Assembly: GCF_041886205.1 (NCBI RefSeq)
Contig: NZ_CP169029.1
From: Escherichia coli
GTDB lineage: Bacteria > Pseudomonadota > Gammaproteobacteria > Enterobacterales > Enterobacteriaceae
Length of the DNA stretch: 64,000 bases
Direction: 5' to 3' (one strand)
In this document: piece after piece, positions 5,198-19,268 of the stretch
Position numbering within the stretch: position 1 is the first letter of the stretch
Layout of the letters: each line of letters starts with the position of its first letter
Notes under the pieces: model-generated
The model's database searches: none
The model's input: the letters and a program-made list of their open reading frames with translations, nothing else
Told to the model about the DNA's origin: nothing
Made by a program: the position numbers and the translations under genes

Positions 5198-5953
5198 TTG
5201 AGTGCGGGACGCCTGAATAAAAAATCTCTGGGTATCGTGATGTTGTTATCGGTTGGACTGCTTTTGGCGGGCTGTTCGGGTAGCAAATCATCCGATACAG
5301 GAACGTATTCCGGCTCCGTTTACACCGTGAAACGGGGGGATACGCTATATCGTATTTCGCGCACCACGGGAACCAGCGTAAAAGAACTGGCGCGACTGAA
5401 CGGCATTTCCCCCCCTTACACCATTGAAGTTGGTCAGAAACTAAAACTGGGTGGGGCGAAAAGTAGCAGTAGTACACGTAAATCAACCGCCAAATCAACG
5501 ACCAAAACCGCATCGGTTACACCGTCATCAGCGGTACCGAAATCATCCTGGCCGCCAGTAGGGCAACGTTGTTGGTTATGGCCAACGACAGGGAAAGTTA
5601 TCATGCCGTATTCGACAGCAGATGGCGGCAATAAAGGGATTGATATCTCAGCTCCACGGGGTACACCTATTTACGCCGCGGGTGCAGGAAAGGTGGTGTA
5701 TGTGGGCAACCAGCTGCGTGGCTACGGTAATCTCATCATGATTAAACACAGTGAAGATTACATTACGGCTTACGCCCATAATGACACGATGCTGGTAAAT
5801 AATGGGCAAAGCGTGAAGGCTGGGCAAAAAATCGCCACCATGGGGAGCACTGATGCGGCATCTGTTCGCCTGCATTTCCAGATTCGTTACCGTGCAACGG
5901 CAATTGATCCGCTACGTTACTTGCCGCCTCAGGGCAGCAAGCCAAAATGCTGA
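5198..5953 (+). CDS. ygeR: LysM + M23 peptidase-domain lipoprotein
   Basis: Lipobox 'LLAGCSG', a LysM domain ('YTVKRGDTLYRISR...'), and a C-terminal M23/LytM domain ('GIDISAPRGTPIYAAGAGKVVY...HLHFQIR'). The TTG start gives 251 aa, as I recall for K-12. Confidence 0.88.
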   Translation: MSAGRLNKKSLGIVMLLSVGLLLAGCSGSKSSDTGTYSGSVYTVKRGDTLYRISRTTGTSVKELARLNGISPPYTIEVGQKLKLGGAKSSSSTRKSTAKSTTKTASVTPSSAVPKSSWPPVGQRCWLWPTTGKVIMPYSTADGGNKGIDISAPRGTPIYAAGAGKVVYVGNQLRGYGNLIMIKHSEDYITAYAHNDTMLVNNGQSVKAGQKIATMGSTDAASVRLHFQIRYRATAIDPLRYLPPQGSKPKC

Positions 5954-6031
5954 TGGCGAATTAATCAGCAGTCAGCAGCGTGGCACTTGCTAAGGAGAGC
6001 GTAAGGTTTATAATGCCTTACGCATCTCGAA

Positions 6032-6105
6032 GCGGGCGTAGTTCAATGGTAGAACGAGAGCTTCCCAAGCTCTATACGAGGGTTCGATTCCCTTCGCCCG
6101 CTCCA
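6032..6105 (+). tRNA. glyU: tRNA-Gly, anticodon CCC
   Basis: A 74-nt cloverleaf can be read by eye: acceptor gcgggcg/cgcccgc, anticodon loop 'cttcccaag' (CCC), T-arm 'gagggttcgattccctt', and an encoded CCA. Confidence 0.92.
6076..6105 (+). repeat. attL: 30 bp of the tRNA-Gly 3' end, repeated exactly at 19239-19268
   Basis: 'acgagggttcgattcccttcgcccgctcca' occurs in direct orientation at both positions. Confidence 0.9.
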
Positions 6106-6110
6106 GTTTA

Positions 6111-6140
6111 CTGATAAATAAGCATATTTTTATTTATCAG
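6111..6140 (+). other. AT-rich hairpin just downstream of glyU (11-bp stem, 8-nt loop)
   Basis: 'ctgataaataa' pairs with 'ttatttatcag'. There is no U-tail, so terminator function is uncertain. Confidence 0.3.
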
Positions 6141-6453
6141 CTAGTTACTTAGCCCCGCTAATGCAGGTACAGTCGTAACTACACATTGCACAATCGCCGC
6201 GCCTGTCGCGTGGTTGGTGTGTGGTAGTCGGGAGCATATCACCGCGCTGGCAGTGGTTTCAACGTTCTTACTGCGACAGCCCAACAACGAACAAAAGCCG
6301 CCTGCCCGGCATAATCCCGAAGACTTTTAGTGAAGCGCATTTTAGCCCGATGCCCCCGTTCTGTCGCCGTCGCGAGACGCCGCAGGGGATAAACAGGTTT
6401 ATGGTGGTCACGGTACTTGCAGACCATATGCAAGCTCTGCCAGCGGTTCGGCC

Positions 6454-6562
6454 TCGCTCCCCTTGGGTACATGGTCATCCTGATAAACTTCACTAACTGA
6501 CATAACGCTGATAAAGTCGCCAGAGGCTCCGCTTGTCTCTTTACCACTAATGGGGCTTTATG
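6454..6562. repeat. copy A of a ~110-bp diverged direct repeat
   Basis: By eye it aligns with 7004-7110 at roughly three-quarters identity. Shared blocks include 'ctcgctcc..gggtacatg.tcat', 'ttcact..ctgacataac.ctgat', 'gtcgcc', 'ctccgc' and 'ttaccac.aa.ggggct.tatg'. Confidence 0.7.
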
Positions 6563-6635
6563 GCTTCTATTGCCTTGATTTTTAATGTTTATGTTCTAGT
6601 CTGAATGTAACTTTGACACAGCAAGGAGTGAAAAA

Positions 6636-6914
6636 ATGTCTGATAATATGAAACGTTTCGAAGTTAAACGAGAAGGCATAGTTTACGGATATGTAGAAGA
6701 GGGTACATTTGAAACCCGGCGTTGGAATTTCGTCTACCCAATCGTAGATGGAAAGATATCTATGGACATTACGACCGTTAATATCCAAAAACAAGACGGA
6801 AAGACCCTTTTGGAATCACAAATCAAAAATATTGGTTTTGATGTCGATTTTGAAAAAAGAACCCTTACAAGAAATGATGGTACAGTTTTTGATTTAGTTG
6901 AAATCGATAGTTAA
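6636..6914 (+). CDS. hypothetical 92-aa protein (no family recognised)
   Basis: A strong RBS 'aaggag' lies 8 nt upstream of the ATG. The gene is AT-rich and followed by a hairpin. It sits between the two repeat copies. Confidence 0.55.
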   Translation: MSDNMKRFEVKREGIVYGYVEEGTFETRRWNFVYPIVDGKISMDITTVNIQKQDGKTLLESQIKNIGFDVDFEKRTLTRNDGTVFDLVEIDS

Positions 6915-6939
6915 TCATCACTAAAAGTCTTCACACTTG

Positions 6940-6972
6940 GGCAGGAGTACCCACCCCTTGGGAACTCCTGCC
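6940..6972 (+). terminator. stem-loop downstream of the 92-aa ORF
   Basis: 'ggcaggagtaccca' pairs with 'tgggaactcctgcc' (14-bp stem, one mismatch, 5-nt loop). There is no clear U-tract. Confidence 0.35.
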
Positions 6973-7003
6973 TGTATTCAAACCCGTTTCAAGTAGCTAC
7001 GTT

Positions 7004-7110
7004 CTCGCTCCTTCGGGTACATGATCATGATAAAATTCACTGTCTGACATAACCCTGATGCTGTCGCCTGACGACTCCGCGTGTTGTCTTACCACCAACG
7101 GGGCTATATG
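7004..7110. repeat. copy B of the ~110-bp diverged direct repeat
   Basis: See copy A (6454-6562). Confidence 0.7.
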
Positions 7111-7247
7111 CGCGCTTTGTTTAAATGGCCCCAATTTAAAGATTCACATGGGAAAGGCCTGCACTTCTGAAAACCCGCTTTCTCAAATTCAATTGAAAAC
7201 GGGTTAATATACTATTACTCAATTTTTTTTCTAAATAATAATCAGTC

Positions 7248-8387
7248 TTATTTGATTAAAGAGTAAATTCCATCTCTATCTAAAAAATCAATGACGTCGT
7301 AGTATGATATTGATAACTCCCACGATCCTAATGCATAGCATTGAATTTCGTACGGGCGGAAATGAAAAGTTAATCCTGAATCATGTATAGTAAAAATATC
7401 TAAACGGCTTTCTAAAATCCCCTTTACCATTTCAGCTAAAGTAGTGTCGTCCGGTTTTTGACCAGTCCTCTCCCAAAATACACGTGGAGCATCTGACATG
7501 AGTTTTTCTTTAATTTTTTTAATAGCATCTAAGTGGGTGCCTCGAATGAAAAGCTCAGATAGAGAAAATTTATATGCGTAGTCATTATCTGTAACCACAA
7601 AATTACTCACAGCAAAGTGGCTGTTTGGGTGTGCAGCGCCAGCGCCGTACCAGTCTACGTTATGTAAGATGCTTATAACATTTTTATTGCAATAAGCAAT
7701 ATAATACATTTCATTGTAATAGCTTGTGTACGTACTTTTATATTCTTCATGCCAGCCAAAATTGTGTGGCCAAGGCGACGTTCTGTTATCAAACACTAAG
7801 CTTGCTACACGGCCTGAAAAATAATTAGATATTATTTCTGCCGACTCTGGAAATAGTTGACTGCTTATTTTCGGGTAAGTTATTTCAAGCTCATGGCTAG
7901 GGATGGTGTTGTGATCTTCTTTATGTGTTAGGCTTATGAATGTAAAGCTGCCGTGTGTAACCCCGCTTGTTACTTCAAGGTTTTGTTGGGTTGCAGCCAG
8001 GTTTAATGATCTTTCTAAAATATCCCAGCCATCAGATCTTTTGTAGTCGATGTATTGGATTTTACTAGATATTAAGGATGGGACTTCGGCGTCGTCAATC
8101 AGCAGTGGGACTACGACGACATCATCTGGTTTATAATATTTTAACTTTTCAATGGCGTCATTTATTTCGCGCCTGATGTATCCATTTTTATTACAGCTAA
8201 CTTTGCTAAGTATTATTATGATAACATTTGCATTGTTAAAATTCTTTTGTATTTCATAATCCCAAATCACACCACCCGGAATATCTTTTATATCCATCCA
8301 CGGTTTATAGCCATTGTTTTTCAACTTTTCATAAATTGACTCGGTTATTTTTTCATCTTCTTTAGCGTGAGCCAAGAATATCTTCAT
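7248..8387 (-). CDS. TIR-domain protein with C-terminal DUF4163/DUF3298 (RsiV/PdaC-like) domain, 379 aa
   Basis: The N-terminus follows the TIR_2 pattern ('KIFLAHAKEDEK..', 'PWMDIKDIPGGVIW', 'VIIIILSKVS', conserved Glu in 'YIRREINDAIE'). The C-terminus carries DUF3298 signatures ('DWYGAGAAHPNSHF', 'FTIHDSGLTFHFRPYEIQCYALGSWELSISY'). The RBS is 'agagga'. There is no signal peptide or TM segment. The gene is very AT-rich. Confidence 0.75.
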   Translation of the reverse strand: MKIFLAHAKEDEKITESIYEKLKNNGYKPWMDIKDIPGGVIWDYEIQKNFNNANVIIIILSKVSCNKNGYIRREINDAIEKLKYYKPDDVVVVPLLIDDAEVPSLISSKIQYIDYKRSDGWDILERSLNLAATQQNLEVTSGVTHGSFTFISLTHKEDHNTIPSHELEITYPKISSQLFPESAEIISNYFSGRVASLVFDNRTSPWPHNFGWHEEYKSTYTSYYNEMYYIAYCNKNVISILHNVDWYGAGAAHPNSHFAVSNFVVTDNDYAYKFSLSELFIRGTHLDAIKKIKEKLMSDAPRVFWERTGQKPDDTTLAEMVKGILESRLDIFTIHDSGLTFHFRPYEIQCYALGSWELSISYYDVIDFLDRDGIYSLIK

Positions 8388-8991
8388 GTTTAATCCTCTA
8401 TGTGAATCACTCTATAAGGTTGATACTTGTGACATATAAAATGCATTTATTATATTGCAATAAGTAAGGTATCGATAGTCTGTGTTTTCTAAAGCCCAAT
8501 GCGTTGAGAGCAAAAGTTAGTGCTAAGATGAGTTAACTTTTTGACTATCAAAAGCGGTCTTTGAGAAGCAGTGACCCATAAATGTGATATCCGTGCTAGA
8601 TGTCTGAAAATTTCCTGCTTCAGGCCACATTTTACTCTTGGCTGTTAAGCAAACTGGGGAGTTTTATCTCGACTTGAAAAATTGCACGCTTATGGTTGCC
8701 CCTCCCTCAACGATTAAGGCTTCAACTTCCCCCGTGCGCCTCTCCCAGCCGAAGGCTGGGCGGGCTGTATATCGATTTGCCTTTCTCTGTGGCGTTTATG
8801 ACCCTGTTTCGCGTTCTGATCATGAGGCTGTGGGTTAGGGTTAATCTTCTCTTTAAACGCTAAATCACTCTTGACTCTCCGCTGTTAAAGCACTTTGCGT
8901 TGATGCTTGGCGCTTCTCTTGGCTGTCGTTATTGTTTTGGCTTCGGTGTCATCAATCGTTCGATTCTTGCTACCTGTCTGAGTGATTACTA

Positions 8992-9065
8992 TCTGGTATC
9001 ATCAATTTAGGGTTTGACTAAATGCTACCACCAATGCAATGATGCTACCGTTTTGTGATACCAGA
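8992..9065. promoter_or_regulatory. res-like recombinase binding region upstream of the serine recombinase gene
   Basis: A perfect 10-bp inverted repeat 'tctggtatca' (8992-9001) / 'tgataccaga' (9056-9065). Internal direct repeats are 'tcatcaat' (8949, 8998) and 'atgctacc' (9022, 9042). The region ends 15 bp before the ATG. Confidence 0.4.
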
Positions 9066-9080
9066 CGGGTGAGGTGAACC

Positions 9081-9656
9081 ATGAGGACTTTTATCTACTG
9101 CCGCGTTTCAACACGCGAGCAGGATACGCAGAATCAGGTGCTGGCTATTGAGCGTGCCGGGTATAAGGTGCCGGAGAGCAGGGTAATCAGCGAGGACATT
9201 TCCGGCAGCGTTCAGGCTATGCAGCGCCCTAAGTTCCGGGCGATGGTTGAGCACAAGCTGGAAGCGGGAGATCAGCTTGTCGTGCTGAAACTGGACAGGC
9301 TGGGGCGTGACAACATCGATGTGCAGCAGACCATCGACATGCTGTTAGAACGCGGCGTGAAGGTGGTGTCTCTTGACCTGCCAGCGCGTGATCTGACTTC
9401 ATCTGAGGGCAAGCTAATCCGCCAGATGTTTGGAGCCTTTGCTGAGTTCGAGCGAAACCGTATCCGTGAGAGGACGCTGGACGGGCTGGAGAAGGCGAAA
9501 GCCAATGGCGTTAAGCTGGGACGCAAGGAAGCCACCGACACCACTCAAAAGGTGCAGGAGTTGCGGAGTGAGGGACTGTCTCAATCGAAGGTAGCGAAGC
9601 GTCTCGGCGTTAGCGTGAGCACCGTTAAACGCCACTGGAACAAGGGCGAGGGGTGA
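9081..9656 (+). CDS. small serine recombinase (resolvase/invertase family), 191 aa
   Basis: N-terminal catalytic motif 'IYCRVSTREQ' (Ser nucleophile), then 'VLKLDRLGRD' and 'FAEFERNRIRERT', with a C-terminal HTH 'SQSKVAKRLGVSVSTVKRH'. Confidence 0.88.
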   Translation: MRTFIYCRVSTREQDTQNQVLAIERAGYKVPESRVISEDISGSVQAMQRPKFRAMVEHKLEAGDQLVVLKLDRLGRDNIDVQQTIDMLLERGVKVVSLDLPARDLTSSEGKLIRQMFGAFAEFERNRIRERTLDGLEKAKANGVKLGRKEATDTTQKVQELRSEGLSQSKVAKRLGVSVSTVKRHWNKGEG

Positions 9657-10737
9657 TGACCTACAAGCGAACGAGGTGCTACGACTGGCCGTTACTGGGC
9701 TGTGGGTGATGGATGACCTACAGTTTTTATATGGATATCAGGGTGTCATGTTATGCGTAATATCGTAATGATATGATTTATAATGTATTTTCGTATTACT
9801 TGCGGCTCTCGATGTGAAGAGGTGGCGGGGCTTTAGCCGTGCCAGACGATGAACATCGAGATCAGATTGTGAATGTGATTCATCACTGAACAATTCGGGG
9901 GATGGGGAGGGAAGGGGAGCAAGAGGTAATTGGTTACGTTCGGCGGCTGGGCTGAATCCTCTCTGTTCCCTGATTAACTTATTTCAGCGTACATGTGTAC
10001 ACTTAACTAATTATCTAGCCTCCCCTACTTACTTATCCTCCCCTCGGGAGGTACGCGCTGCACCTCGTTTACACGTCCCGTCCGCCTGCCGGAGACAGGG
10101 CTTCGCCCCTTCTCCAGACCTCTTCCCCTGCTGCGCTTCTCGCTCGCTTTGCTCTCTGTGATGCTCGGTGCTCATCGCTGCCACGCTTGCCGCACTGGCT
10201 AGGTGGCGGGGGTATACAGTGACACGACATTAACCATAGTTATTTGCACTTTACTGGTAATGGCACTGTATTCTCCATGCCATCTTCACTGTCTGCCGCC
10301 TGCCATTCTTTAGGATTCCATCCCTTAACATTCCGCGCTCGCTCTGCATATCTGGCGACACATTATCAAAATGTATCTTTCATAATTTTATAATCAATAC
10401 AATGAATTACATCTTTAATATTTAAAGGCTACTAATAAGGAAAGCTGGAACATACCTTTCCTGCTTTTAAACCTACGTGAATTGTTTTGTTAACTCCTCT
10501 CGGCCTAGACGCAACAAGGCTTTACCGGGCGTTGCAATCAGTTAAACCGCTAGAAAGCGGCTACTGTGGCAAGACGAACACCACTCGCTTGTGCATCCGT
10601 AGTTACCTACATGAGAGTGACTGCTAAGGATAGGCGGAACATTGTCACCAACACCGACAACGAAACCTCCACTACGGGAATGCAACCAATTCCCTGCGGA
10701 GCCTTTCAAATCCAAACCATTTACTGGAGTCTGTACA

Positions 10738-12582
10738 ATGCCAACAATTTTAGAGCGGCTGCTGGCGCATGCCGACAGGGCTGATGTGCTCAATGTGGGG
10801 TGCGCGGATGCTCAACAATTAATTGCAGATAAGGTTGTTATTCCCCGTTCCAAGTTGTGTCCTGTCAGTGGTAAGCCCGTTAAAGCTGTGTTTAATACTG
10901 AGCAGAACGTATTTTATTTTCACGCTGATGGTTCGGTTATGACTTTCCGCGAATGGAAAATCATAAACGGGATTGGCCGCAAGATACACGCCCGACGCGC
11001 TGATGCTGGGCTTCGTCAGGTTATTCAGCCCGGTGATGCAACTCACTGCCGACGCGCTGAGATTGAGCAGTGGCTGGACAAGAAGCCTGCTCGTTATGTT
11101 GACCCGCTGCCGCCAGACTTCCCCGGCGTTCGTGTCGATGACGCTGCACTTAAACCGCGTGAACACTCCATTCCAGAATCGACAACCGGGCAGAATGCTT
11201 TTCTCAAAGCCTGCCGCGAGTTCCTGATTTGTGATGAGAAGACCATGCACCGTATCAACAGGGGCATGAATAAACTGGAAGCGATGCGCAATACAGATTT
11301 CAAACGCTACGGGGACTCAGCGGAGTTTCGTCAATTGTGGTGTGGAGAGTCGAAACCTGCCGAGGATAAATTTAACAGTACAAATCATCATTGTGACCCG
11401 AACGGCTTGGCTGCATTGCCGTCTGTGCCGTCACTGAATACTGCGCCGTATGAGTTCCGCCCGCTGGCTCGCTGTGACCGAAACGCACGCGTTAGCCTGC
11501 TGCCACCTGATGGGCTGGAGTGGAGGCCGGGGCAGTTGTCTGTTGCTGATGTGATCTTTTCCCGTGGTGGTGATGTGCTGGCCGTTCTTCCCACGGGTTA
11601 TGGCAAAAGTGCTGCCTTCACTTACCCATTGATTTATGAGTCCCGTGCTGGCGTTGGTCTGTCTGTAATCGTTGTTCCTACTAATACCCTTAAACGCCAG
11701 ATTCTCCGACAGTTGCGGGAAGCGGGCGTTCACGCAGTGGCCTTTGGCGATAAGCTACCGAAGCACCGCAACGCGCAACAACTGGCGGGGCTGGCTGCCG
11801 GGGCGTTCCGTGTTGCTGTTGTTTCGCCTGAACATCTGGTTCCGTCGAATCAGGTTTTCGCGGCGCTGATGGCTTACGGTGTTGATCGTTTTATCATCGA
11901 CGAAGCGCACACGGTTAAAGACTGGGATTTTCGGCCTGCTTACGAGGCAATGCAGCACTCGCTACAACATGCCTTTCCTTCGGCTCAGCGCTGCGTGTTT
12001 ACGGCTACGCTACTACGTGAAAATGAGCGCGGTTTAATGGAGTCGCTGGGATGCCGTGGCGATTACGTCACATTCCGTGCTGATGTTGCTCGCGAGAATA
12101 TCCAGTTGATTCCGGTCAGGCAGTGCCGCCAGCGATACCGCGCGGCTGTTGGTCTGGTCGAGGCTCTGCCGAAGGAAGAGAAGACCCTCATTCTCGTCAA
12201 TGACCTTAAGACCTTGCGGGCGTACCTGAAACTCTTAGGCGACCGGGCGCGGCCATATCACTCGAAGACGATGCACCTGAGTAACGAAGAACGCCACGCA
12301 AACGCTGAGTGGTTTGCCACTACGCCGGGCGCAATTCTGGTTGCGACTAAAGCTTTCGGACTGGGGGCTGATGTTCCCGATATCCGTAACGTTATCGTGA
12401 CTTACATTCCTGATGACCTGCCTGATCTCGTTCAGATGATTGGACGAGCCGGGCGCGATGGTCAACCTGCCCGCGCGTTTCTGCTGTGGTCATCTCTGGC
12501 GCTGGATGCTGCGCCTGATGAGCTTGCTTACTTCTACCGCGCTGAAAACTGCAACTGGGATTACATCTCCCGCTTCCTCTGA
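10738..12582 (+). CDS. RecQ-family superfamily-2 helicase with a ~270-aa N-terminal region of unknown family
   Basis: Motif 0 'WRPGQ', I 'LPTGYGKSAAF', II 'IIDEAHTV', III 'TATL', V 'VATKAFGLGADVPD', VI 'QMIGRAGRDGQ'. The start is chosen at 'MPTILERL' after 'ggag'. The 32-codon upstream extension in the ORF track is probably not translated. Confidence 0.8.
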   Translation: MPTILERLLAHADRADVLNVGCADAQQLIADKVVIPRSKLCPVSGKPVKAVFNTEQNVFYFHADGSVMTFREWKIINGIGRKIHARRADAGLRQVIQPGDATHCRRAEIEQWLDKKPARYVDPLPPDFPGVRVDDAALKPREHSIPESTTGQNAFLKACREFLICDEKTMHRINRGMNKLEAMRNTDFKRYGDSAEFRQLWCGESKPAEDKFNSTNHHCDPNGLAALPSVPSLNTAPYEFRPLARCDRNARVSLLPPDGLEWRPGQLSVADVIFSRGGDVLAVLPTGYGKSAAFTYPLIYESRAGVGLSVIVVPTNTLKRQILRQLREAGVHAVAFGDKLPKHRNAQQLAGLAAGAFRVAVVSPEHLVPSNQVFAALMAYGVDRFIIDEAHTVKDWDFRPAYEAMQHSLQHAFPSAQRCVFTATLLRENERGLMESLGCRGDYVTFRADVARENIQLIPVRQCRQRYRAAVGLVEALPKEEKTLILVNDLKTLRAYLKLLGDRARPYHSKTMHLSNEERHANAEWFATTPGAILVATKAFGLGADVPDIRNVIVTYIPDDLPDLVQMIGRAGRDGQPARAFLLWSSLALDAAPDELAYFYRAENCNWDYISRFL

Positions 12583-12627
12583 GTTAACTGGCTCGCCTGT
12601 TTAAATTCTTTTCTGGAGAAAATTTGT

Positions 12628-13062
12628 ATGCCTGATGAAACCGCGCTGCATCGCGCGGGGCGTTCTGACGCCCTGATTAATGCACAACTCGCCTTTGCCC
12701 TGAACGGGTATTCATTTGACGGACTGGCGTCACGCCATGTTCACGCTCTTAATCGTGAGGCCATATTGCGCCGGGTAAGCTCGCCACTACAGCGGTATTG
12801 CCTGCTGAATGATTGCGAGCCGTGGGAATGCATCGCGGCGGTGTTGAACAGATTCCGACGCCGGGAGGATGGCTCTCGCGTTTGGCCGACCTACCGCATG
12901 GCTCGCGAGATATTTAACGGAACTGTTCACCCGGATATTAAGACGCGCGATGAGATATTCCAGTCTGTACAACGCCGCCTCTTTTTACCAAAACCAGTAC
13001 ACGCCGAAGTAATTCAGTATCTGCGCGTAATGGGGCTGATAGGAGTTAATCCGCATGACTAA
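12628..13062 (+). CDS. hypothetical protein, 144 aa
   Basis: RBS 'ggagaa', and its 3' end overlaps the next ORF. No family recognised. Confidence 0.55.
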   Translation: MPDETALHRAGRSDALINAQLAFALNGYSFDGLASRHVHALNREAILRRVSSPLQRYCLLNDCEPWECIAAVLNRFRRREDGSRVWPTYRMAREIFNGTVHPDIKTRDEIFQSVQRRLFLPKPVHAEVIQYLRVMGLIGVNPHD

Positions 13063-13261
13063 AACCGAGTTTGAAAATGAAACGTGGCGGATGAAAGGCT
13101 TGCTCCTTGGAGCGCTAATTCGCCGCCTTGAGGAAGACAAGGTTGGTGAGTCGCGCATGGCCGCAGCGGAGTTATCCAGTGCGGTCAACTTCCTTAAGGC
13201 CAATGCCGTAGAAGCGCCGGACACGTCATTTAACCGTGTATTTGAGGATGACGAGCAATGA
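13055..13261 (+). CDS. hypothetical 68-aa helical protein (weak resemblance to small phage DNA-packaging subunits)
   Basis: Translationally coupled on both sides (ATGA overlaps). 'AAAELSSAVNFLKANAV' resembles a motif I associate with small terminase subunits. This is a very tentative link. Confidence 0.45.
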   Translation: MTKTEFENETWRMKGLLLGALIRRLEEDKVGESRMAAAELSSAVNFLKANAVEAPDTSFNRVFEDDEQ

Positions 13262-13434
13262 CACCCGCAGAGTTTAGAGCTTGGTTTGCAACCCTGCCGC
13301 CGAACTATCAGAGCGCAGCACGAGCCATGTATGAAAGCGCCCGCAAGACGGGAACACATACCGCTTCCAGCCTGTTACTCATTCGCTCGCTGATTGAAGA
13401 TCAAATCAATTTCGATGGAGATTTTACTCTATGA
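13258..13434 (+). CDS. hypothetical 58-aa protein (below the ORF-track size cut-off)
   Basis: Its ATG overlaps the upstream stop (caATGa), and its stop overlaps the next start (ctATGAg). It fills an otherwise empty slot in a tightly packed operon. Confidence 0.45.
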   Translation: MTPAEFRAWFATLPPNYQSAARAMYESARKTGTHTASSLLLIRSLIEDQINFDGDFTL

Positions 13435-13994
13435 GAGTTTTAAACCTGACCGATATTCAGCGCATTAATACCCTTGTGAAGCGCGACCTTCTCAATGTGG
13501 AGGAGGTTGTCGCTGCAACCGGATTCGACCCGGTAGATGTGGACGCGGTGCTGAGAGGCGTCTATGTCGCCGATCTTGCCAGCCAGTGGAAGGACGACGC
13601 CGCTATCTCACTGGAGGAATACAACGCTATCCGTAAGCGCTGGAAACCGGGGCGCGGTCACTGGGACACTGCACACGCCATTGCACGCGATTTTCTAATC
13701 CGGCCTGAAACGGTATTAGCTATCGCCCATTCCCGCTTTAGCAATGCCCAAACGCACCCGATGCCGAAAGCTGTTAAAGCGAAGCCTGAGAAGCCGCAGA
13801 CGATGCGCCGCCTGTCTGGCGCTGATCTTGACGAGGCGCACAAGCTGGAGCGCTTTGGCTGGCCTGTTGCTGAGATTGCCGGAAAGCTTGAAATTCCAGT
13901 CGAAGCGGCTGCTCAAGCGCTGCGCCTGATGCGTAATCGCTGGAGCTATCCCGATATTTTAGAAGACGTTAACGCGCGATACGGGGCTAAGTGA
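13431..13994 (+). CDS. hypothetical 187-aa protein with HTH-like segments
   Basis: Coupled to its neighbours. 'GWPVAEIAGKLEIPVEAAAQALRLM' looks like a helix-turn-helix. Confidence 0.5.
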   Translation: MRVLNLTDIQRINTLVKRDLLNVEEVVAATGFDPVDVDAVLRGVYVADLASQWKDDAAISLEEYNAIRKRWKPGRGHWDTAHAIARDFLIRPETVLAIAHSRFSNAQTHPMPKAVKAKPEKPQTMRRLSGADLDEAHKLERFGWPVAEIAGKLEIPVEAAAQALRLMRNRWSYPDILEDVNARYGAK

Positions 13995-14230
13995 TGGCAG
14001 AGCATAACGAACCACTGCATCCCGCAGTTAACCCTGATCTCTATGTGAATCTTGATGAACAACGCGAGGGATACGCGCCGATTGAATCACGGGGCTGGGG
14101 TGTGTTGACGCAGAACCTGACCGGGGAAGGGCGAACCGACTCCAGCCAAACGCTTAACCAGAATCGAAGACAACGCCCGCGCGGCTCTGTTGGTGAACGC
14201 CGTTGGCTTCGCAGGCATGGGTTACTTTAA
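13991..14230 (+). CDS. small hypothetical gene, possibly frameshifted at a G4 run (alternative 3' end at 14246)
   Basis: The tail of frame A is Arg-rich and looks non-native. The other frame, from 14121, reads 'PGKGEPTPAKRLTRIEDNARAALLVNAVGFAGMGYFNEELP*' and ends in an ATGA overlap with the next gene. Confidence 0.4.
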   Translation: MMAEHNEPLHPAVNPDLYVNLDEQREGYAPIESRGWGVLTQNLTGEGRTDSSQTLNQNRRQRPRGSVGERRWLRRHGLL

Positions 14231-14242
14231 CGAGGAATTACC

Positions 14243-14482
14243 ATGAGCAAAACCATTGTACTGTTGCCGCCCCGAAAGAATACCGACTGGGCTGCACAAT
14301 TAAAGCTGATTTCTGAATCGCTTGAGGTGAGTCAGGCAGACCTTGCCCGCGCCTATCAGGTTGACCGTCAGGATATGGGGAAAGCGTATCACGGTGTACG
14401 CAAACTGCCGGAGCGATGTGTGCCTGTTCATATGCTGTTGTTAGCGCAGGTTCACGACTTTAGAGCATTATCAGGAGAATAA
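14243..14482 (+). CDS. hypothetical 79-aa protein with putative HTH
   Basis: RBS 'gagga'. 'LEVSQADLARAYQVDRQDMGKAY' is HTH-like. Confidence 0.5.
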   Translation: MSKTIVLLPPRKNTDWAAQLKLISESLEVSQADLARAYQVDRQDMGKAYHGVRKLPERCVPVHMLLLAQVHDFRALSGE

Positions 14483-14485
14483 TTT

Positions 14486-15166
14486 ATGTCTGATCAGAAT
14501 GTTAATCCGTACCTTTCCGGTGGTGATGCTGCACCGCAGCAATCGCCATACATGGCCGCACCAGTGGGCGCTGACAATGGCGCATCTCGCTTTAGCGCTG
14601 AGCCTGCTGATGCTGATTTCCTCCGTACCCAGCCCGTTAACGGCAATGATGGCGGCCAATGGAATAATAGCAATATTGCTAATCAGCAAGACCGGAACAC
14701 TGACAGCGCCGAGGCGCAGGTGGGCGATACTATCCCCCTGATGGATGGAACAGCTATTGAGTACACCGCCGAGCTACAAGGTTTAATGGGGCAGTTTCAC
14801 CAGTCCATAGAAAGCCAGCTAGGGCAGGGTACAGTTGACGCTATGTTGCAGTACGCTGGCACGCTCGATGCCGGGACTCAATCAACCCTTGAACGGATGG
14901 TTATGTCTGGCGACCCTGCACAGATGCAGCGGGCGGTTCAGTATCTGCAAGAGCGTATGGCTGGCGGTTCCATTACCGGTTACGTCCCGAACGGCCAGAC
15001 CGCCGCGCAACCTGTCGGAATGTCTCATGCTGAGTTTATTGCAGCGTATGACCAGCTTTCGCAGTGGGCACAGCAATCAGGGTATGGCCCCGGCCATCGT
15101 CAGTACGACGAGCAATACCGCGCTCTGGTTGCGCAGCGCTCCGCTGGCAAACGTGCTGGCCGCTAA
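14486..15166 (+). CDS. acidic/Gln-rich 226-aa protein resembling T7-group scaffolding protein (gp9) in its C-terminal half
   Basis: The N-terminus is disordered. The C-terminal segment 'VDAMLQYAGTLDAGTQSTLERMV...GMSHAEFIAAYDQL...YDEQYRALVAQRS' parallels T7 gp9 '..FDALYNHLETHNPEAAQSLDNAL...GFADRSEMIKAMSDPRY..YRRQVEQKV', recalled from memory. It lies upstream of the capsid-like ORF, as in T7. Confidence 0.45.
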   Translation: MSDQNVNPYLSGGDAAPQQSPYMAAPVGADNGASRFSAEPADADFLRTQPVNGNDGGQWNNSNIANQQDRNTDSAEAQVGDTIPLMDGTAIEYTAELQGLMGQFHQSIESQLGQGTVDAMLQYAGTLDAGTQSTLERMVMSGDPAQMQRAVQYLQERMAGGSITGYVPNGQTAAQPVGMSHAEFIAAYDQLSQWAQQSGYGPGHRQYDEQYRALVAQRSAGKRAGR

Positions 15167-15325
15167 GCAATCGCCCGTCCTGTCTTCTCCGCGTCTTAAC
15201 CTTACGTTTTAGAGCCTGAATCGCGTTGTACATCGCCAGATGTGTATTCGTACACCTGCGCCTGTAAAACGCGAAATTACCTCTCAAACACCACACATAA
15301 ACCCACTTTGCATTGAGATCTGACA

Positions 15326-15673
15326 ATGACCTTACTGACACCTGAAAACGTGGCAGCGGCTAGGGCTGCCCGTAGTGCGAGGATTGAACACTGGAAAGCC
15401 AACGCCAGCCAGCTTAAACAGGACTTTGCTGACGAAGCGCACTGGCGGCGGCTCGCCTCACTCTACGGCGTGCGTATGCCCTCGGCGTATGTTCCCGGCT
15501 CTGAGCTGCGATTGTTGCGCAGGGCGGCCAAACGCGCGGGCATCTCTGGTGCTGACATGCGCGATGCTTTCGGTGGAGGCGTTGCGCACCTGCACGAGCT
15601 TAATCCCCACTGGCCTGCTTTCGCGCTTATCGGCCTGATTCTTGAGATCGCGGCTGAAAAAGCTGCTGCCTGA
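15326..15673 (+). CDS. hypothetical protein, 115 aa
   Basis: An ORF in the operon with no family recognised. Confidence 0.45.
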   Translation: MTLLTPENVAAARAARSARIEHWKANASQLKQDFADEAHWRRLASLYGVRMPSAYVPGSELRLLRRAAKRAGISGADMRDAFGGGVAHLHELNPHWPAFALIGLILEIAAEKAAA

Positions 15674-15740
15674 CCCGTCACATTCTCTTTTCCCATTTCT
15701 ATAAATCGCGCTGGCTATAGCTGGCGCGGGAGCTATTCCT

Positions 15741-16553
15741 ATGACTGACAATGTTTATACCCCTGATCAATTCCGCCCGCACTGGGGCGGTGTAGGTGCT
15801 GACAACGACATTCACATTGAAGCGTATGACCGGGACGTTCAGACCCGTCTTGAGGCAAAGAGCGTCTTTCTGGCCGAGGGGCTGAGCACATACAAGCCGC
15901 TGAAAGCCAGCAACCATTACCGCATTGATCGCCTGAGTGGTGATCTTGAGGTGAAGGGCAGAACCTCAGGGCAATCGCTGGAGCCTACCGCTGTTAAGTC
16001 GGACAAGCTGATTATCTCTGTGGATACGCTGAGTTATATCCGCATCCCGATTGATTATCAGGATGACTGGACTGCACCCACCTTTCGCGCAGAGCTGAGC
16101 CGCAATATCGGCACTGCGCACGCTAAGTTCTACGACGAAGCGCACACCATCCAGTTAATCAAAGCGACTGACTTTGTACCGCCGCCGACACTGCAACCAA
16201 CGTTTAACCCGCTTACCGGGCAATGCACCCAGCTTACAGAGAGGATAAATAAGATGATAACCACGATTAAGCTGAGGTGGCGGTACATCGAGCCGCCGCC
16301 AATGACTGGCGCACTTGCTGACCTGAAACAATGGGTAATTGATGCCGGAGAGCCTGAGCTTGAAGATGAATTTCGTAAGCTGCTGGGGCTGATGCGTCGC
16401 AATGGTATCAGTGATGAACGTGTTAAGGCGATTGCTGATGAGCTTTATGCTCTGGTATGCCAACGCCAGCGCGAAGAATACGAAGCCTGCAAGCGGGCTG
16501 CCTCTGACAATGGAGACTTTGAATCATGGTTACACGGACAGACCAACTACTAA
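15741..16553 (+). CDS. 270-aa protein; its N-terminal ~150 aa resemble the N-terminal part of T7-group major capsid protein (gp10), and its C-terminal ~120 aa are unrelated
   Basis: RBS 'gggag'. 'KSDKLIISVDTLSYIRIPIDYQDDWTAPTFRAELSRNIGTAHAKFYDEAHTIQLIKA' parallels T7 gp10 'HTEKVITIDGLLTADVLIYDIEDAMNHYDVRSEYTSQLGESLAMAADGAVLAEIAG', recalled rather than computed. It is too short to form a complete HK97-fold capsid protein. Confidence 0.45.
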   Translation: MTDNVYTPDQFRPHWGGVGADNDIHIEAYDRDVQTRLEAKSVFLAEGLSTYKPLKASNHYRIDRLSGDLEVKGRTSGQSLEPTAVKSDKLIISVDTLSYIRIPIDYQDDWTAPTFRAELSRNIGTAHAKFYDEAHTIQLIKATDFVPPPTLQPTFNPLTGQCTQLTERINKMITTIKLRWRYIEPPPMTGALADLKQWVIDAGEPELEDEFRKLLGLMRRNGISDERVKAIADELYALVCQRQREEYEACKRAASDNGDFESWLHGQTNY

Positions 16554-16561
16554 GAAAAGTG

Positions 16562-16954
16562 ATGCGGGGCTATTTGGAACACCTCGGCAATATACCGCTG
16601 GCGGAACGGATTACAAACGCTGCTGCATTCGAAGATGTTTATCGCTTCCTGTTGAATGGTTCCGGGCGGCTGGAGCTGCGCCGTGCTGACGTGGCTGCTG
16701 TCCGTGTCTTCTTGTGGAATTATCAGTACCGTCGCTGTGCGGTGACAGGTAAGCCGCTGCGCCTTGCGTCTGCCGTGCTGGATCACTGCCACCGAACCGG
16801 GCGCGTGCGTGCTGTGGTGCATCGTTCTGCTAATGCTGCCGAGGGCGGCTATCACGTAGGGCGTTTGTGCGGTATGTCCCCAACCAGCATGGGGGCGATG
16901 CTGAGTTGCTATCGCCAGCAATATAAAGGACTCGGCATTATTTATCCGAAATGA
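16562..16954 (+). CDS. endonuclease VII-like protein (start uncertain: 16526 or 16562)
   Basis: 'LDHCHRTGRVRAVVHRSANAAEG' matches the recombination endonuclease VII core 'DHDHxTGxVRGLLCxxCNxxLG'. The Cys residues of the Zn cluster are replaced here. Confidence 0.6.
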   Translation: MRGYLEHLGNIPLAERITNAAAFEDVYRFLLNGSGRLELRRADVAAVRVFLWNYQYRRCAVTGKPLRLASAVLDHCHRTGRVRAVVHRSANAAEGGYHVGRLCGMSPTSMGAMLSCYRQQYKGLGIIYPK

Positions 16955-16996
16955 CGGGGCTACTATGCCCCGTATTTTAACTGGCGGGAGGTGTTA

Positions 16997-17914
16997 TCAA
17001 ACAGGAATATTCAAGTAAGCGCAGATTGCATTAGTCAGCAGAGCCGGAGCTACCGCACCCGCAATTTTGAGGCTGCCAGAGTAAGCTTTGCCTATCATAG
17101 CTCCGACCCAGTTACCAATTTCCCCTCCAAGATTATTTGATGATGTGGGGGCTGGGGACTGCTCTATTGCTTGTTTCAACGTCTTAATGTCGCTGTCTTC
17201 AATGCCATATTCTTTTAGTTGACGCTCAAGAGTATTGAAGTCACCAGCTGTTATGGAATTTTGCTGATTAATATCCCCAGTGTTTCCAGCACCAATTGCA
17301 CCAGAGTTGTTAACATTTCCGTTGAAATTATTAATGTTATTTACTGTCATACCTGCCGCCTCTTTCTTTTCTTCGAGAGAAAATAACAACCCTTCACCGA
17401 GTATCCCTTTTCTTTCAAGTAATAAAGCCCAGTCGAGAATCCTTGAGCGAGTATTTGAAAGTATTTTGGTTATCTGTGTGGGGTTAATGCTATATGCCAT
17501 CCGAAAATCGCAGTCGCCCATTTCCTGCAAGAAGTCAGCCAGAAAAGATGGGAGGTCACTATATAGTGTGCTGTCCCGTTTCGCGTACTCAATCAACATT
17601 GATACAGGATTGTTTATGTGAACAGTTGTTAAGGTATCGTAGATATCTTGATGCTTTTCCTGTGTATTACTTAGTTGATATGGAATCCAACCGACATATG
17701 GATTGAACGCTCGAATCGGAACATTTCTGAGAACTCTGTAGTCGGGAAGTAGATCATGTGATGGATAGCCGTTTAATTCATGCTCAAGCCACTCAGATAT
17801 ATCCTTTAGGTCTAGTTTGACTGAGATCATTTTTGCTCGTGCCAATAGCTCCTCAATATCGGTTGAGCTTGAGCTAGCCATTTCTTGTAACTTAAGGACG
17901 GGAGAATTGTTCAT
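16997..17914 (-). CDS. AbiTii-like abortive-infection protein with Asn/Gly-rich linker and glycine-zipper C-terminus, 305 aa
   Basis: The N-terminus 'LKLQEMASSSSTDIEELLARAKMISVKLDLKDISEWLEHELNGYP...PDYR' fits the AbiTii N-terminal pattern as I recall it. The C-terminus 'GGEIGNWVGAMIGKAYSGSLKIAGAVAPALL' contains GxxxGxxxG. The gene is AT-rich and adjacent to the integrase. Confidence 0.6.
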   Translation of the reverse strand: MNNSPVLKLQEMASSSSTDIEELLARAKMISVKLDLKDISEWLEHELNGYPSHDLLPDYRVLRNVPIRAFNPYVGWIPYQLSNTQEKHQDIYDTLTTVHINNPVSMLIEYAKRDSTLYSDLPSFLADFLQEMGDCDFRMAYSINPTQITKILSNTRSRILDWALLLERKGILGEGLLFSLEEKKEAAGMTVNNINNFNGNVNNSGAIGAGNTGDINQQNSITAGDFNTLERQLKEYGIEDSDIKTLKQAIEQSPAPTSSNNLGGEIGNWVGAMIGKAYSGSLKIAGAVAPALLTNAICAYLNIPV

Positions 17915-17934
17915 TGAAGCCCCTCAAAAGTTTT

Positions 17935-19152
17935 TCAGCATGTTATCGCATCATATTTGACTAACTCAACATGTCTCGATAACTCTTGCATCCCAGCTCC
18001 CTTGCTGTATGTCCTGAATGCTTCAGTTTTGGCCTTTTGTTCGGTGTGCCCTGTGATTGCACCTATCCGCTGTTCTGGTACGCCAGCCCTATCTAAGCAG
18101 GTGATGAAGTGACCGCGCAGTGAATGGAAGCATTGGCGATCTGTAGCCGCTGGCAGCACGCGACGGCGTAGCCGTGTGAATGCCTGAGAATACCACGGGC
18201 CGCGCTTACCATCGGCGCGTTTAATCTTGTTTGATTGGGGCAGTAGGTATTCCCCGTTGTTCTGCGAAAGGTATTTATCAACGATGCTAATTAATAGCGA
18301 GTGTATGGGGACGTGCCTTACGCCCGCTTTAGTTTTAGATTTGCTGACGTAGAAGCACCGTATCCCTTCAACTGTGACGATCTCATCTCGTTTGATGCTG
18401 GCGATTTCGTCGAGACGCATACCGGAATACAAGCCGATTATGATTACGTCGCGCACCTCGCCACCTGCCTCTTTTATTAATGCCTGTAGTTGGTGAGGCT
18501 CAAACGGCTGGTAACTTTCAATGGTGCGGCGGGCTTCCAGATTGTGGCCGTGGAACGGGTTGCTGTCCGGTATCTGATCGTAACGTCTCTTGGCGAACTC
18601 ATAAAGACTGCCCAAGGAGGTTAACCAGTTTTGCACAGTCTGCGGAGCTGCATCACTTTGCTGCTGGGTATCAACGAACTCTGAAACGAGCCGCCGCCCA
18701 ACTTTATCTAAGGTGATATCTGTCTTCTTGATGCTTTGGAGAAATACCTCTACCGCTCTGGCCGACTTGCTCAATGTAGAGAATGTTCGGCGCTCGCTAT
18801 ACACCGCCATGTACTCATCACGGATAGCGGACAGCTTGGGAATCATTGTTGAAACATGTGTAGTTTCGGGTGATTTATTGCTGGCCTGTTTTAATAAAAT
18901 TTGCAGGGAGCTAAGCGTGTTCTGGATTCTAATATCTTCGCGCTCAGGATTTAGTAATGTCTTGATGTTATTGAACTCAATCAGCATGTGGTTGCGAAAA
19001 TGCCGAGCCTTTACGATGTCCCTAGTTCCCGTGGATTTGCGCCAAGCCCGTTTATTGCCAAACAGATGGCGCATGTATTTTGGGACAAAGATTTGAAATA
19101 TCCAGACGCCGTTATGGCTTTGAAAAAGATACTGATTGTGCTTGATAGGCAT
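17935..19152 (-). CDS. int: tyrosine recombinase / phage-type integrase, 405 aa
   Basis: The catalytic tetrad context is present: 'GMRLDEI' (Arg), 'HSLRGHF' (His-x-x-Arg), 'ITGHTE' (His) and 'FRTYSKG' (Tyr). It lies 87 bp from attR. Confidence 0.9.
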   Translation of the reverse strand: MPIKHNQYLFQSHNGVWIFQIFVPKYMRHLFGNKRAWRKSTGTRDIVKARHFRNHMLIEFNNIKTLLNPEREDIRIQNTLSSLQILLKQASNKSPETTHVSTMIPKLSAIRDEYMAVYSERRTFSTLSKSARAVEVFLQSIKKTDITLDKVGRRLVSEFVDTQQQSDAAPQTVQNWLTSLGSLYEFAKRRYDQIPDSNPFHGHNLEARRTIESYQPFEPHQLQALIKEAGGEVRDVIIIGLYSGMRLDEIASIKRDEIVTVEGIRCFYVSKSKTKAGVRHVPIHSLLISIVDKYLSQNNGEYLLPQSNKIKRADGKRGPWYSQAFTRLRRRVLPAATDRQCFHSLRGHFITCLDRAGVPEQRIGAITGHTEQKAKTEAFRTYSKGAGMQELSRHVELVKYDAITC

Positions 19153-19238
19153 AGCTTTTTGTCCTATAAAAGCACGCTATCAGGTACAGCCATTTGTACA
19201 ATGTTGGGATGGGTAAGCAAGTTTCCGACTTGTTTTAA

Positions 19239-19268
19239 ACGAGGGTTCGATTCCCTTCGCCCGCTCCA
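19239..19268 (+). repeat. attR: duplicated 30-bp tRNA-Gly 3' end
   Basis: Identical to 6076-6105. Confidence 0.9.

Follow-up and report, generated by a model that had tools for sequence, protein, structure and literature searches.

What does a gene do that joins a TIR domain to the fold of the lysozyme receptor RsiV, with no membrane segment and no recurring partner gene? The question is raised by a 379-residue open reading frame (ORF) in a 64,000-nucleotide stretch of Escherichia coli DNA (contig NZ_CP169029.1, assembly GCF_041886205.1), here called the window, which is a piece of chromosome carrying xdhABC, actS, and glyU. The gene belongs to an island inserted at glyU and encodes what we refer to as the TIR-DUF4163/DUF3298 protein. 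Based on the comparisons described below, we consider it probable that the protein would act as a stand-alone cytoplasmic sensor-effector, carried as cargo by a satellite-like island and protecting both the bacterial population and the island by abortive infection.

Architecture of the TIR-DUF4163/DUF3298 protein

The ORF is on the minus strand, a point left unstated in the initial annotation of this DNA, which had been made from the letters and their translations. All six peptide strings quoted there were present in the translation: KIFLAHAKED (residues 2-11), PWMDIKDIPGGVIW (29-42), VIIIILSKVS (55-64), and YIRREINDAIE (70-80) of the TIR half, and DWYGAGAAHPNSHF (245-258) and FTIHDSGLTFHFRPYEIQCYALGSWELSISY (332-362) of the sensor half. 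The Pfam profile TIR_2 (PF13676) matched residues 3-122 with an E value of 6.5e-22 and 78.7 bits against a cut-off of 28, and DUF3298 (PF11738) matched residues 279-362 with an E value of 2.2e-8 and 35.3 bits against a cut-off of 24.1. Both profiles of the claimed TIR and DUF3298 architecture thus exceed the curated cut-offs, and the fold searches agree. The same profile check went the other way for DUF4163: PdaC/DUF4163 (PF13739) covered residues 166-256 at an E value of 1.6e-3 and 20 bits, under its 29.1-bit cut-off.

For the N-terminal half, the best PDB matches of the family profile were SPARTA TIR-APAZ chains (E 3e-12, residues 2-140), and a Foldseek search of the PDB recovered SPARTA TIR-APAZ, Cat1, AbTir, and SARM1. 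The catalytic glutamate of TIR NADases is found at the position of SARM1 E642 or SPARTA E77. In our protein E74, within the motif RREIND/QREAND, was invariant in an alignment of 44 diverse homologues with identities down to 23%, and by counting in the printed profile alignment it falls opposite SPARTA TIR-APAZ E77, the established catalytic residue of that protein. These two observations bear out the earlier placement of the glutamate of YIRREINDAIE at the catalytic position. Profile and alignment together show the N-terminal domain to be a TIR of the predicted effector (NADase) type with its putative catalytic glutamate intact. Mean pairwise identity in the 44-member alignment was 54% for the TIR half versus 41-44% for the sensor half. 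Among defence models, the top PADLOC matches were Argonaute-associated TIRs, with the Aga_TIR-PNTD models covered only at positions 5-120 of 430, and across PADLOC and NCBIfam the Argonaute-associated, retron, and ThsB models were matched over the TIR part alone.

For the C-terminal half, an AlphaFold2 (AF2) monomer model was built from the 44-sequence alignment, with a mean predicted local distance difference test score (pLDDT) of 88.5 and a predicted template modelling score (pTM) of 0.64. Foldseek against the PDB returned 3cyg, 3s5t, RsiV (5jen), and PA4972 (4e72) with E values of 6e-12 to 2e-8, and the structure alignments to these four entries span 189-214 residues, which takes in both lobes. 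The family profile also matched 3s5t (E 1e-8) and 3cyg (E 4e-8). These fold relatives were detected only by family profile and fold searches; a PDB search with the C-terminal 240 residues as a single sequence gave chance matches alone, and RsiV was matched by sequence neither in that search nor with the family profile. Structure prediction and fold search thus recovered both the TIR and the RsiV-like DUF3298 fold, and since the weak DUF4163 profile match is backed by structure, the entire two-lobed RsiV-like module appears to be present. In the predicted model, the C-terminal 240 residues are shown to adopt the two-lobed DUF4163/DUF3298 fold of RsiV. A fold search of BFVD returned nothing at E <= 0.001 and no DUF3298-like viral protein.

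No transmembrane helix or signal peptide was found in the protein, the highest 19-residue Kyte-Doolittle mean being 1.43 and the N-terminus being the first strand of the TIR domain. On these grounds the protein is predicted to be cytoplasmic, and the hydropathy scan agrees with the earlier claim to that effect. RsiV, in contrast, combines a sigma-binding domain with a membrane segment and a receptor domain outside the cytoplasm, whereas the output domain here is a TIR; with its TIR N-terminus and low hydropathy maximum, the protein does not look like an RsiV-type anti-sigma factor. To our knowledge, the DUF4163/DUF3298 fold had until now been described only in extracytoplasmic settings, either as a receptor (RsiV) or as a domain without an assigned role.

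The architecture is not a chance product, since it is common to 126 protein clusters recovered full-length in a search of 5.8 billion proteins. Nearly all of these clusters are 376-405 amino acids (aa) long with both Pfam domains, and their only name is 'TIR domain-containing protein'; the sources are Enterobacterales, Pseudomonas, Burkholderiales, Stenotrophomonas, and metagenomes. A one-genome-per-species scan extended the set of full-length proteins to Alphaproteobacteria, Acidobacteriota, Deinococcus, and Bacteroidota, and two distant members are on rhizobial megaplasmids. Any member of the family was present in 18 of 5426 complete E. coli genomes, and the enterobacterial allelic variants are 98%, 79%, and 65% identical.

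The sensor half was also followed outside this family by searching residues 140-379 against 1.84 billion representatives, which gave 347 relatives, the best 150 of which were classified. These 150 comprised 57 TIR fusions, one DUF4062-DUF3298 fusion (DUF4062 being presumably a member of the same TIR-like clan), and one TIR-DUF3298-beta-helix protein, together with other forms, about 30 of them short, fragmentary, or with an N-terminal region lacking an assigned domain. A hydrophobic N-terminal segment, the usual secreted or lipoprotein form, was found in 62 of the 93 non-TIR relatives. From the 57 TIR fusions and the DUF4062 fusion, we infer that the cytoplasmic form of the fold is essentially tied to TIR-type domains. 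The idea that other effectors are mounted on the same sensor was rejected, fusion among the best 150 of the 347 being almost exclusively to the TIR superfamily.

The initial annotation had guessed at an endolysin or lysozyme as the trigger, and no evidence was found behind this part of it. RsiV does bind C-type lysozyme with a dissociation constant (Kd) of 70 nM through loops 163-171 and 255-261, ligand binding being required for downstream signalling (PMC5014341), and the most conserved motifs of our family, GAAHPN and PY...YA.G, lie roughly at the place of these contact loops by a positional estimate that is not a residue-level alignment. However, MPT64/Rv1980c shares this fold yet failed to bind lysozyme (PMC5014341), so the fold does not imply such binding, nor is it a property of a superfamily that also includes the PdaC N-terminal region, PA4972, and BF2082. 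The 44-member alignment has an invariant loop, W246-YGAGAAHPN-255, and the near-invariant residues P345/Y346...Y351/A352/G354; similar motifs recur in secreted relatives, such as '...YTGGAHG' in protein P0245, and GAAHPN and PYxxxxYAxG are common to the whole DUF4163/DUF3298 superfamily, most members of which are secreted with no known ligand. The hallmark motifs were therefore present as quoted, but being superfamily-wide they give no pointer to a lysozyme. Phage endolysins are structurally diverse and mostly not C-type lysozymes, and the failure to match RsiV by sequence points the same way. We regard it as improbable that the sensor serves in the cytoplasm specifically to detect phage lysozyme or endolysin, and as unlikely that it is a cytoplasmic pattern-recognition module that would directly bind a phage muralytic enzyme or another conserved phage protein and so switch on the TIR NADase. 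If this were so, the protein would represent a new class of bacterial immune receptor, in which an envelope lysozyme receptor has been moved into the cytoplasm.

A single gene in the cargo slot of the glyU island

The 3' end of the glyU tRNA is repeated at 19236-19268, which places the TIR gene inside a 13.2-kb island (6106-19268) on its tRNA-proximal side. The order of features from the left is attL, a repeat of about 110 nucleotides (nt), a 92-aa ORF, a second repeat of about 110 nt, the TIR gene, and the serine recombinase, followed by the DEAD/DEAH helicase, small ORFs, a truncated major head protein, endonuclease VII, the AbiTii gene, the tyrosine integrase, and attR (Table 1). Both the att repeats and this gene order agree with the claim that the gene occupies the tRNA-proximal cargo slot of a mobile island. 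Its G+C content of 36.3% is below that of both the island core (53.6%) and the chromosomal flank (50.8%), which confirms that it is AT-rich relative to the core. By its sequence content the island looks like a phage satellite, without being assigned to any named satellite family. The head protein here is 270 aa long and covers positions 15-174 of a 410-position PHROG, while those of sister islands have 331-333 aa, and the HNH gene of the sister islands is missing. Given its truncated capsid gene and missing HNH gene, the island of the window is probably defective, so that any present-day benefit of the TIR gene may be to the host and not to the satellite.

Table 1. Features of the glyU island and of the TIR-DUF4163/DUF3298 gene, in window coordinates
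Feature	Position	Strand	Basis and remarks
tRNA-Gly(ccc), glyU	6032..6105	plus	ARAGORN, Rfam; 3' end 6073-6105 = attL
TIR-DUF4163/DUF3298 gene	7248..8387	minus	379 aa, ATG start; stop codon 7248-7250; ORF list, Pfam, AF2
C-terminal DUF4163/DUF3298 (RsiV/PdaC-like) module, residues 140-379	7251..7970	minus	
Invariant loop W246-YGAGAAHPN-255	7623-7652	minus	
TIR domain, residues 1-135	7983..8387	minus	
Putative catalytic Glu E74 codon	8166-8168	minus	
Intergenic region between divergent TIR and resolvase genes	8388..9080		693 bp
Serine recombinase (resolvase/invertase), borders cargo slot	9081..9656	plus	Pfam Resolvase 8e-37, HTH_7; PHROG DNA invertase 5e-55
Island core	10642..16954	plus	Pfam, PHROGs; includes small ORFs without family match
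DEAD/DEAH helicase	10642-12582	plus	
Truncated major head protein	15741-16553	plus	
Endonuclease VII	16526-16954	plus	
AbiTii-domain gene, second cargo position by integrase	16997..17914	minus	Pfam 3e-38, PADLOC 6e-41
Tyrosine integrase	17935..19152	minus	Pfam Phage_integrase, DUF6538
attR, 33-nt copy (97%) of tRNA 3' end	19236..19268	plus	Direct repeat

Sister islands, annotated with 'capsid protein' and 'HNH endonuclease', are found at thrW, at a tRNA-Leu gene by ahr/yjgR, at glyU, and at another site in Enterobacter. In each, we defined the slot as the interval between attL and the serine recombinase. The TIR gene fills it in the window, N18-04097, and P377; in A16 it holds a DNA methyltransferase and an XcyI-family restriction endonuclease (PADLOC REase_II, 6e-206), in OkiPb01685 an AbiJ_NTD4 protein (PADLOC candidate PDC-S32, 9e-103), in NCTC11023 a DUF3800 protein (PDC-M04A, 2.5e-21) with two proteins without a match, in E2348/69 two proteins without a match, and in KFu019 one. 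Since sister islands carry restriction-modification, AbiJ/PDC-S32, or DUF3800/PDC-M04A genes there, the slot is best described as a defence hotspot, a small one exposed here in a poorly described family of satellite-like islands at glyU, thrW, and the tRNA-Leu gene. In a core-less derivative found in several enterobacterial assemblies (loci L060-L066, encoding protein P0001, 98% identical), the equivalents of window positions 8900-16759 are deleted, while the TIR gene, AbiTii, and an integrase fragment are retained beside glyU. In these loci the accessory genes have outlived the element.

Whether the TIR gene works alone was addressed by calling ORFs in 40 homologue loci, in 38 of which the gene itself was recovered, and clustering the neighbours within 6 kb. 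No protein family recurred in more than three of the 38 loci, and we therefore take the protein to act as a single gene. Two candidate partners in the island were rejected. The 92-aa ORF (6636-6914) runs convergently to the TIR gene and does not occur in loci L060-L066, whose TIR gene is 98% identical, and AbiTii is absent both beside the identical TIR gene of N18-04097 and near distant homologues.

The lack of a partner bears on the possibility that the protein is a Thoeris-like signal generator, making a messenger of the glycocyclic ADP-ribose (gcADPR) or His-ADPR type that would switch on an effector whose gene lies elsewhere in the genome. TIR chemistry permits both outcomes, and ThsB-type profiles do match, if weakly (Pfam ThsB_TIR, E 0.17; PADLOC ThsB, E 0.007-0.008; NCBIfam ThcB4, E 0.016). 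Thoeris (ThsA/ThsB) likewise has a TIR protein that answers phage infection, the response predicted for ours. But no SIR2, SLOG, Macro, caspase-like, or other ThsA-like domain was found by Pfam among the island ORFs of the window and none recurred near the 38 homologues, as the initial annotation had anticipated for the immediate neighbourhood; the gene travels between hosts as a lone cassette, and its nearest TIR relatives, such as SPARTA, are effectors that deplete NAD. We think a signal-generating role quite improbable and favour a stand-alone effector.

A role outside phage defence can be set against the same evidence. It is established that E. coli and Brucella have TIR virulence factors, MPT64, of DUF3298 fold, is reported to bind eukaryotic membranes (PMC6553557), and the island adjoins the ETT2 type III secretion island, all of which could fit a host-directed virulence TIR of the TcpC/TcpB type with an MPT64-like membrane-binding domain. 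Such a function is nevertheless very improbable for a protein with no secretion signal, whose family extends to soil and water bacteria (Methyloversatilis, Collimonas, Acidobacteria, Deinococcus) and whose slot holds restriction-modification and Abi genes in sister islands.

Homologue contexts and the proposed anti-phage function

The 65% allele ends a phage-inducible chromosomal island (PICI)-like satellite at argU (tRNA-Arg) in 16 complete E. coli genomes including IAI39. The IAI39 allele (WP_000688840.1) is 68% identical in nucleotides, and its satellite (locus L081, NC_011750.1 532503-545185) encodes an integrase, an AlpA/helix-turn-helix regulator, an Icd-like protein, DUF4222, a primase with an internal stop, single-stranded DNA-binding protein (SSB), and capsid and decoration genes. 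This satellite abuts a truncated lambdoid prophage. The Enterobacter copy is in the same type of resolvase/helicase island as that of the window, and Yersinia copies are in TrfA/TrbL elements, where they adjoin an SMC-like ATPase, a YobI-type ATPase, or two reverse transcriptases with an integrase. In Pantoea the gene has an integrase, GmrSD_N, HEPN_RiboL-PSP, and RelA_SpoT as neighbours. In Burkholderia cepacia the gene occupies a classic moron slot of a prophage, with the late-regulation genes on one side and the small terminase on the other, and lies on the opposite strand; an nSTAND3 protein is nearby. The Stenotrophomonas copy is in a variable region with a type IV secretion system effector/immunity pair and an adjoining IS110 transposase, and no defence gene was seen there. 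Each of the 11 contexts annotated with Pfam was a satellite, an integrative element, a prophage moron slot, or a further kind of conflict-gene region.

Such contexts could also suit a factor that serves the island or prophage and not host immunity, in one variant an addiction or stress-triggered toxin whose TIR NADase stabilises the satellite, in another a competition factor that interferes with helper or competing phages on the satellite's behalf, with a sensor that reads an element- or helper-encoded protein. The enterobacterial copies are on satellites and integrative elements, and the TIR gene and AbiTii have been kept together after loss of the island core. However, the 38 loci have no conserved antitoxin or immunity partner, and in other phyla no mobile element is visible around many of the homologues; in practice, moreover, this explanation overlaps with abortive-infection defence. 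We give maintenance or competition only a small chance of being the primary role.

The anti-phage reading of the TIR-DUF4163/DUF3298 gene is preferred because of the defence genes in the sister slots, the homologues on satellites, a prophage, and integrative elements, and AbiTii in the same island. By analogy with SpbK, SPARTA, TIR-SAVED, TIR-STING, and Cat1, the resting protein would be autoinhibited and non-assembled. Its DUF4163/DUF3298 module would bind a phage-derived component, probably a protein and possibly multimeric, and binding would bring TIR domains into head-to-tail assemblies with composite active sites. These would convert NAD+ to ADP-ribose (ADPR), cyclic ADPR (cADPR), and nicotinamide, and the loss of NAD+ would stop the infected cell ahead of phage release, protecting kin cells and the resident island. 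SpbK is one precedent for this scheme, and RsiV is another, as proof that the sensor fold can act as a tight protein receptor on whose ligand binding signalling depends.

Several results weigh against this proposal. In 24 more distant genomes, where ORFs were called with our own crude script and Pfam was run on the 150 ORFs within 3.5 kb, the neighbours belonged mostly to housekeeping families, with four integrases. On these crude ORFs PADLOC (E <= 1e-10) gave a contrast that is not decisive, with 97 heavily redundant model hits for the 150 near ORFs versus 15 for 119 ORFs at least 6 kb away, many of the near hits coming from one reverse transcriptase and others from IetA/IetS, PDC-S19, and a DinG-like helicase. 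The proposed homologue survey therefore returned a divided answer, the annotated contexts being mobile or conflict regions throughout and the distant genomes showing mostly housekeeping neighbours; in the same way, the anti-phage role claimed at the outset draws circumstantial support from slot content, homologue contexts, and AbiTii as a second cargo but finds no clear association in the 24 distant genomes. A tblastn search of 50,697 phage records gave no family match. Effector swapping, a usual trait of defence sensors, was not seen among the best 150 of the 347 sensor relatives, and the most conserved sensor residues, being superfamily-wide, are uninformative on a phage ligand. Lastly, with a pTM of 0.64, the relative placement of the two halves in the AF2 model is uncertain.

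Among known systems, a close parallel in logic is SpbK (YddK) of the Bacillus subtilis element ICEBs1, a single-gene TIR NADase borne on a mobile element that acts by abortive infection and is activated when the phage YonE portal clusters its TIR domains (PMC12847820). Our protein has its TIR at the N-terminus and a DUF4163/DUF3298 module as sensor; no sequence relation to SpbK beyond the TIR fold was found. SPARTA TIR-APAZ is the closest solved TIR by sequence and also has an N-terminal TIR followed by a sensor-coupling region, its own output being NAD+ depletion upon oligomerisation, to which we liken the proposed action here. Unlike SPARTA and other short prokaryotic Argonaute systems, however, our locus has no APAZ and no Argonaute gene nearby, and the C-terminal half is of another fold (DUF3298). 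The exchange of cassettes at one set place of a satellite-like island resembles the P4 and P2 hotspots and the cargo of phage-inducible chromosomal islands (PMC9122126), but the island described here differs in its set of tyrosine integrase, serine recombinase, DEAD helicase, capsid, and HNH/endonuclease VII genes.

No system model of PADLOC-DB v2.0.0 (2023) or NCBIfam 20.0 covers the full length of the protein, the partial matches to the TIR region being the only ones, and no paper on a TIR-DUF4163/DUF3298 protein was found in the searchable literature, including by accession WP_000688839, a search that lay outside subscription papers and supplementary tables. In the accessible text of a recent domain-centric discovery study (PMC13069673, 2026), TIRs are mentioned only for type IV Thoeris. 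The statement that no characterised system has this architecture accordingly stands for these sources. Most likely the protein is an abortive-infection effector of the single-protein TIR kind, with a sensor fold new to that kind, and as such it is not categorically new. If it proves protective, it would add a new sensor fold to the single-protein TIR immune receptors and would give the DUF4163/DUF3298 superfamily a second assigned role, the first in the cytoplasm. The system is also tractable, consisting of one 1.1-kb E. coli gene with a clear catalytic-dead control (E74A) and natural allelic variants.

Minor features of the island and its relatives

Five slot proteins of E2348/69, KFu019, and NCTC11023 (L077 2457-3005 and 3757-4449; L080 2747-3661; L002 8646-9218 and 10113-10811) had no Pfam or PADLOC match. 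They are WP_000851053.1, WP_000569068.1, WP_000908169.1, WP_069915179.1, and WP_105574347.1, and we regard them as candidate new defence genes, through which the hotspot may hold further new systems.

A 307-aa version of the TIR-DUF4163/DUF3298 protein (P0019), without the first ~70 TIR residues, represents 379 member sequences under the database name 'DUF3298 domain-containing protein, partial', from Salmonella Derby, and could be either an inactivated gene copy or an artefact of assembly.

The element of about 110 nt occurs in the window as two direct copies (6453-6562 and 7004-7110, 77% identical) that bracket the cassette of the 92-aa ORF. Sister islands have single copies between the attL side and the 3' end of the cargo gene (L002 8441-8558, L071 9284-9406, and L060-L066 11271-11398). 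An Rfam search of 5900-10700 reported the tRNA alone above threshold and gave no match for this element, which might mark a cassette boundary or serve recombination, possibly by the serine recombinase, or else be a terminator or a small RNA.

The TIR and resolvase genes are divergent and presumably both have their promoters in the intergenic region between them; a promoter and terminator scan around the TIR gene gave just weak consensus promoter matches, none of them established. Between the resolvase and helicase genes, about 1 kb (9657-10641) contains no ORF of at least 60 aa, a gap that is longer in the sister island of N18-04097, and a search of it for iterons or hairpins gave nothing convincing. 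Past attR, positions 19300-40000 form a block of low G+C content (30-40%) that corresponds to the ETT2 type III secretion island (ygeH, EscU/YscU, and PrgH among others). ETT2 is present at a coverage of at least 80% in 3017 of the 5426 E. coli genomes, and the 13.2-kb island sits between it and glyU.

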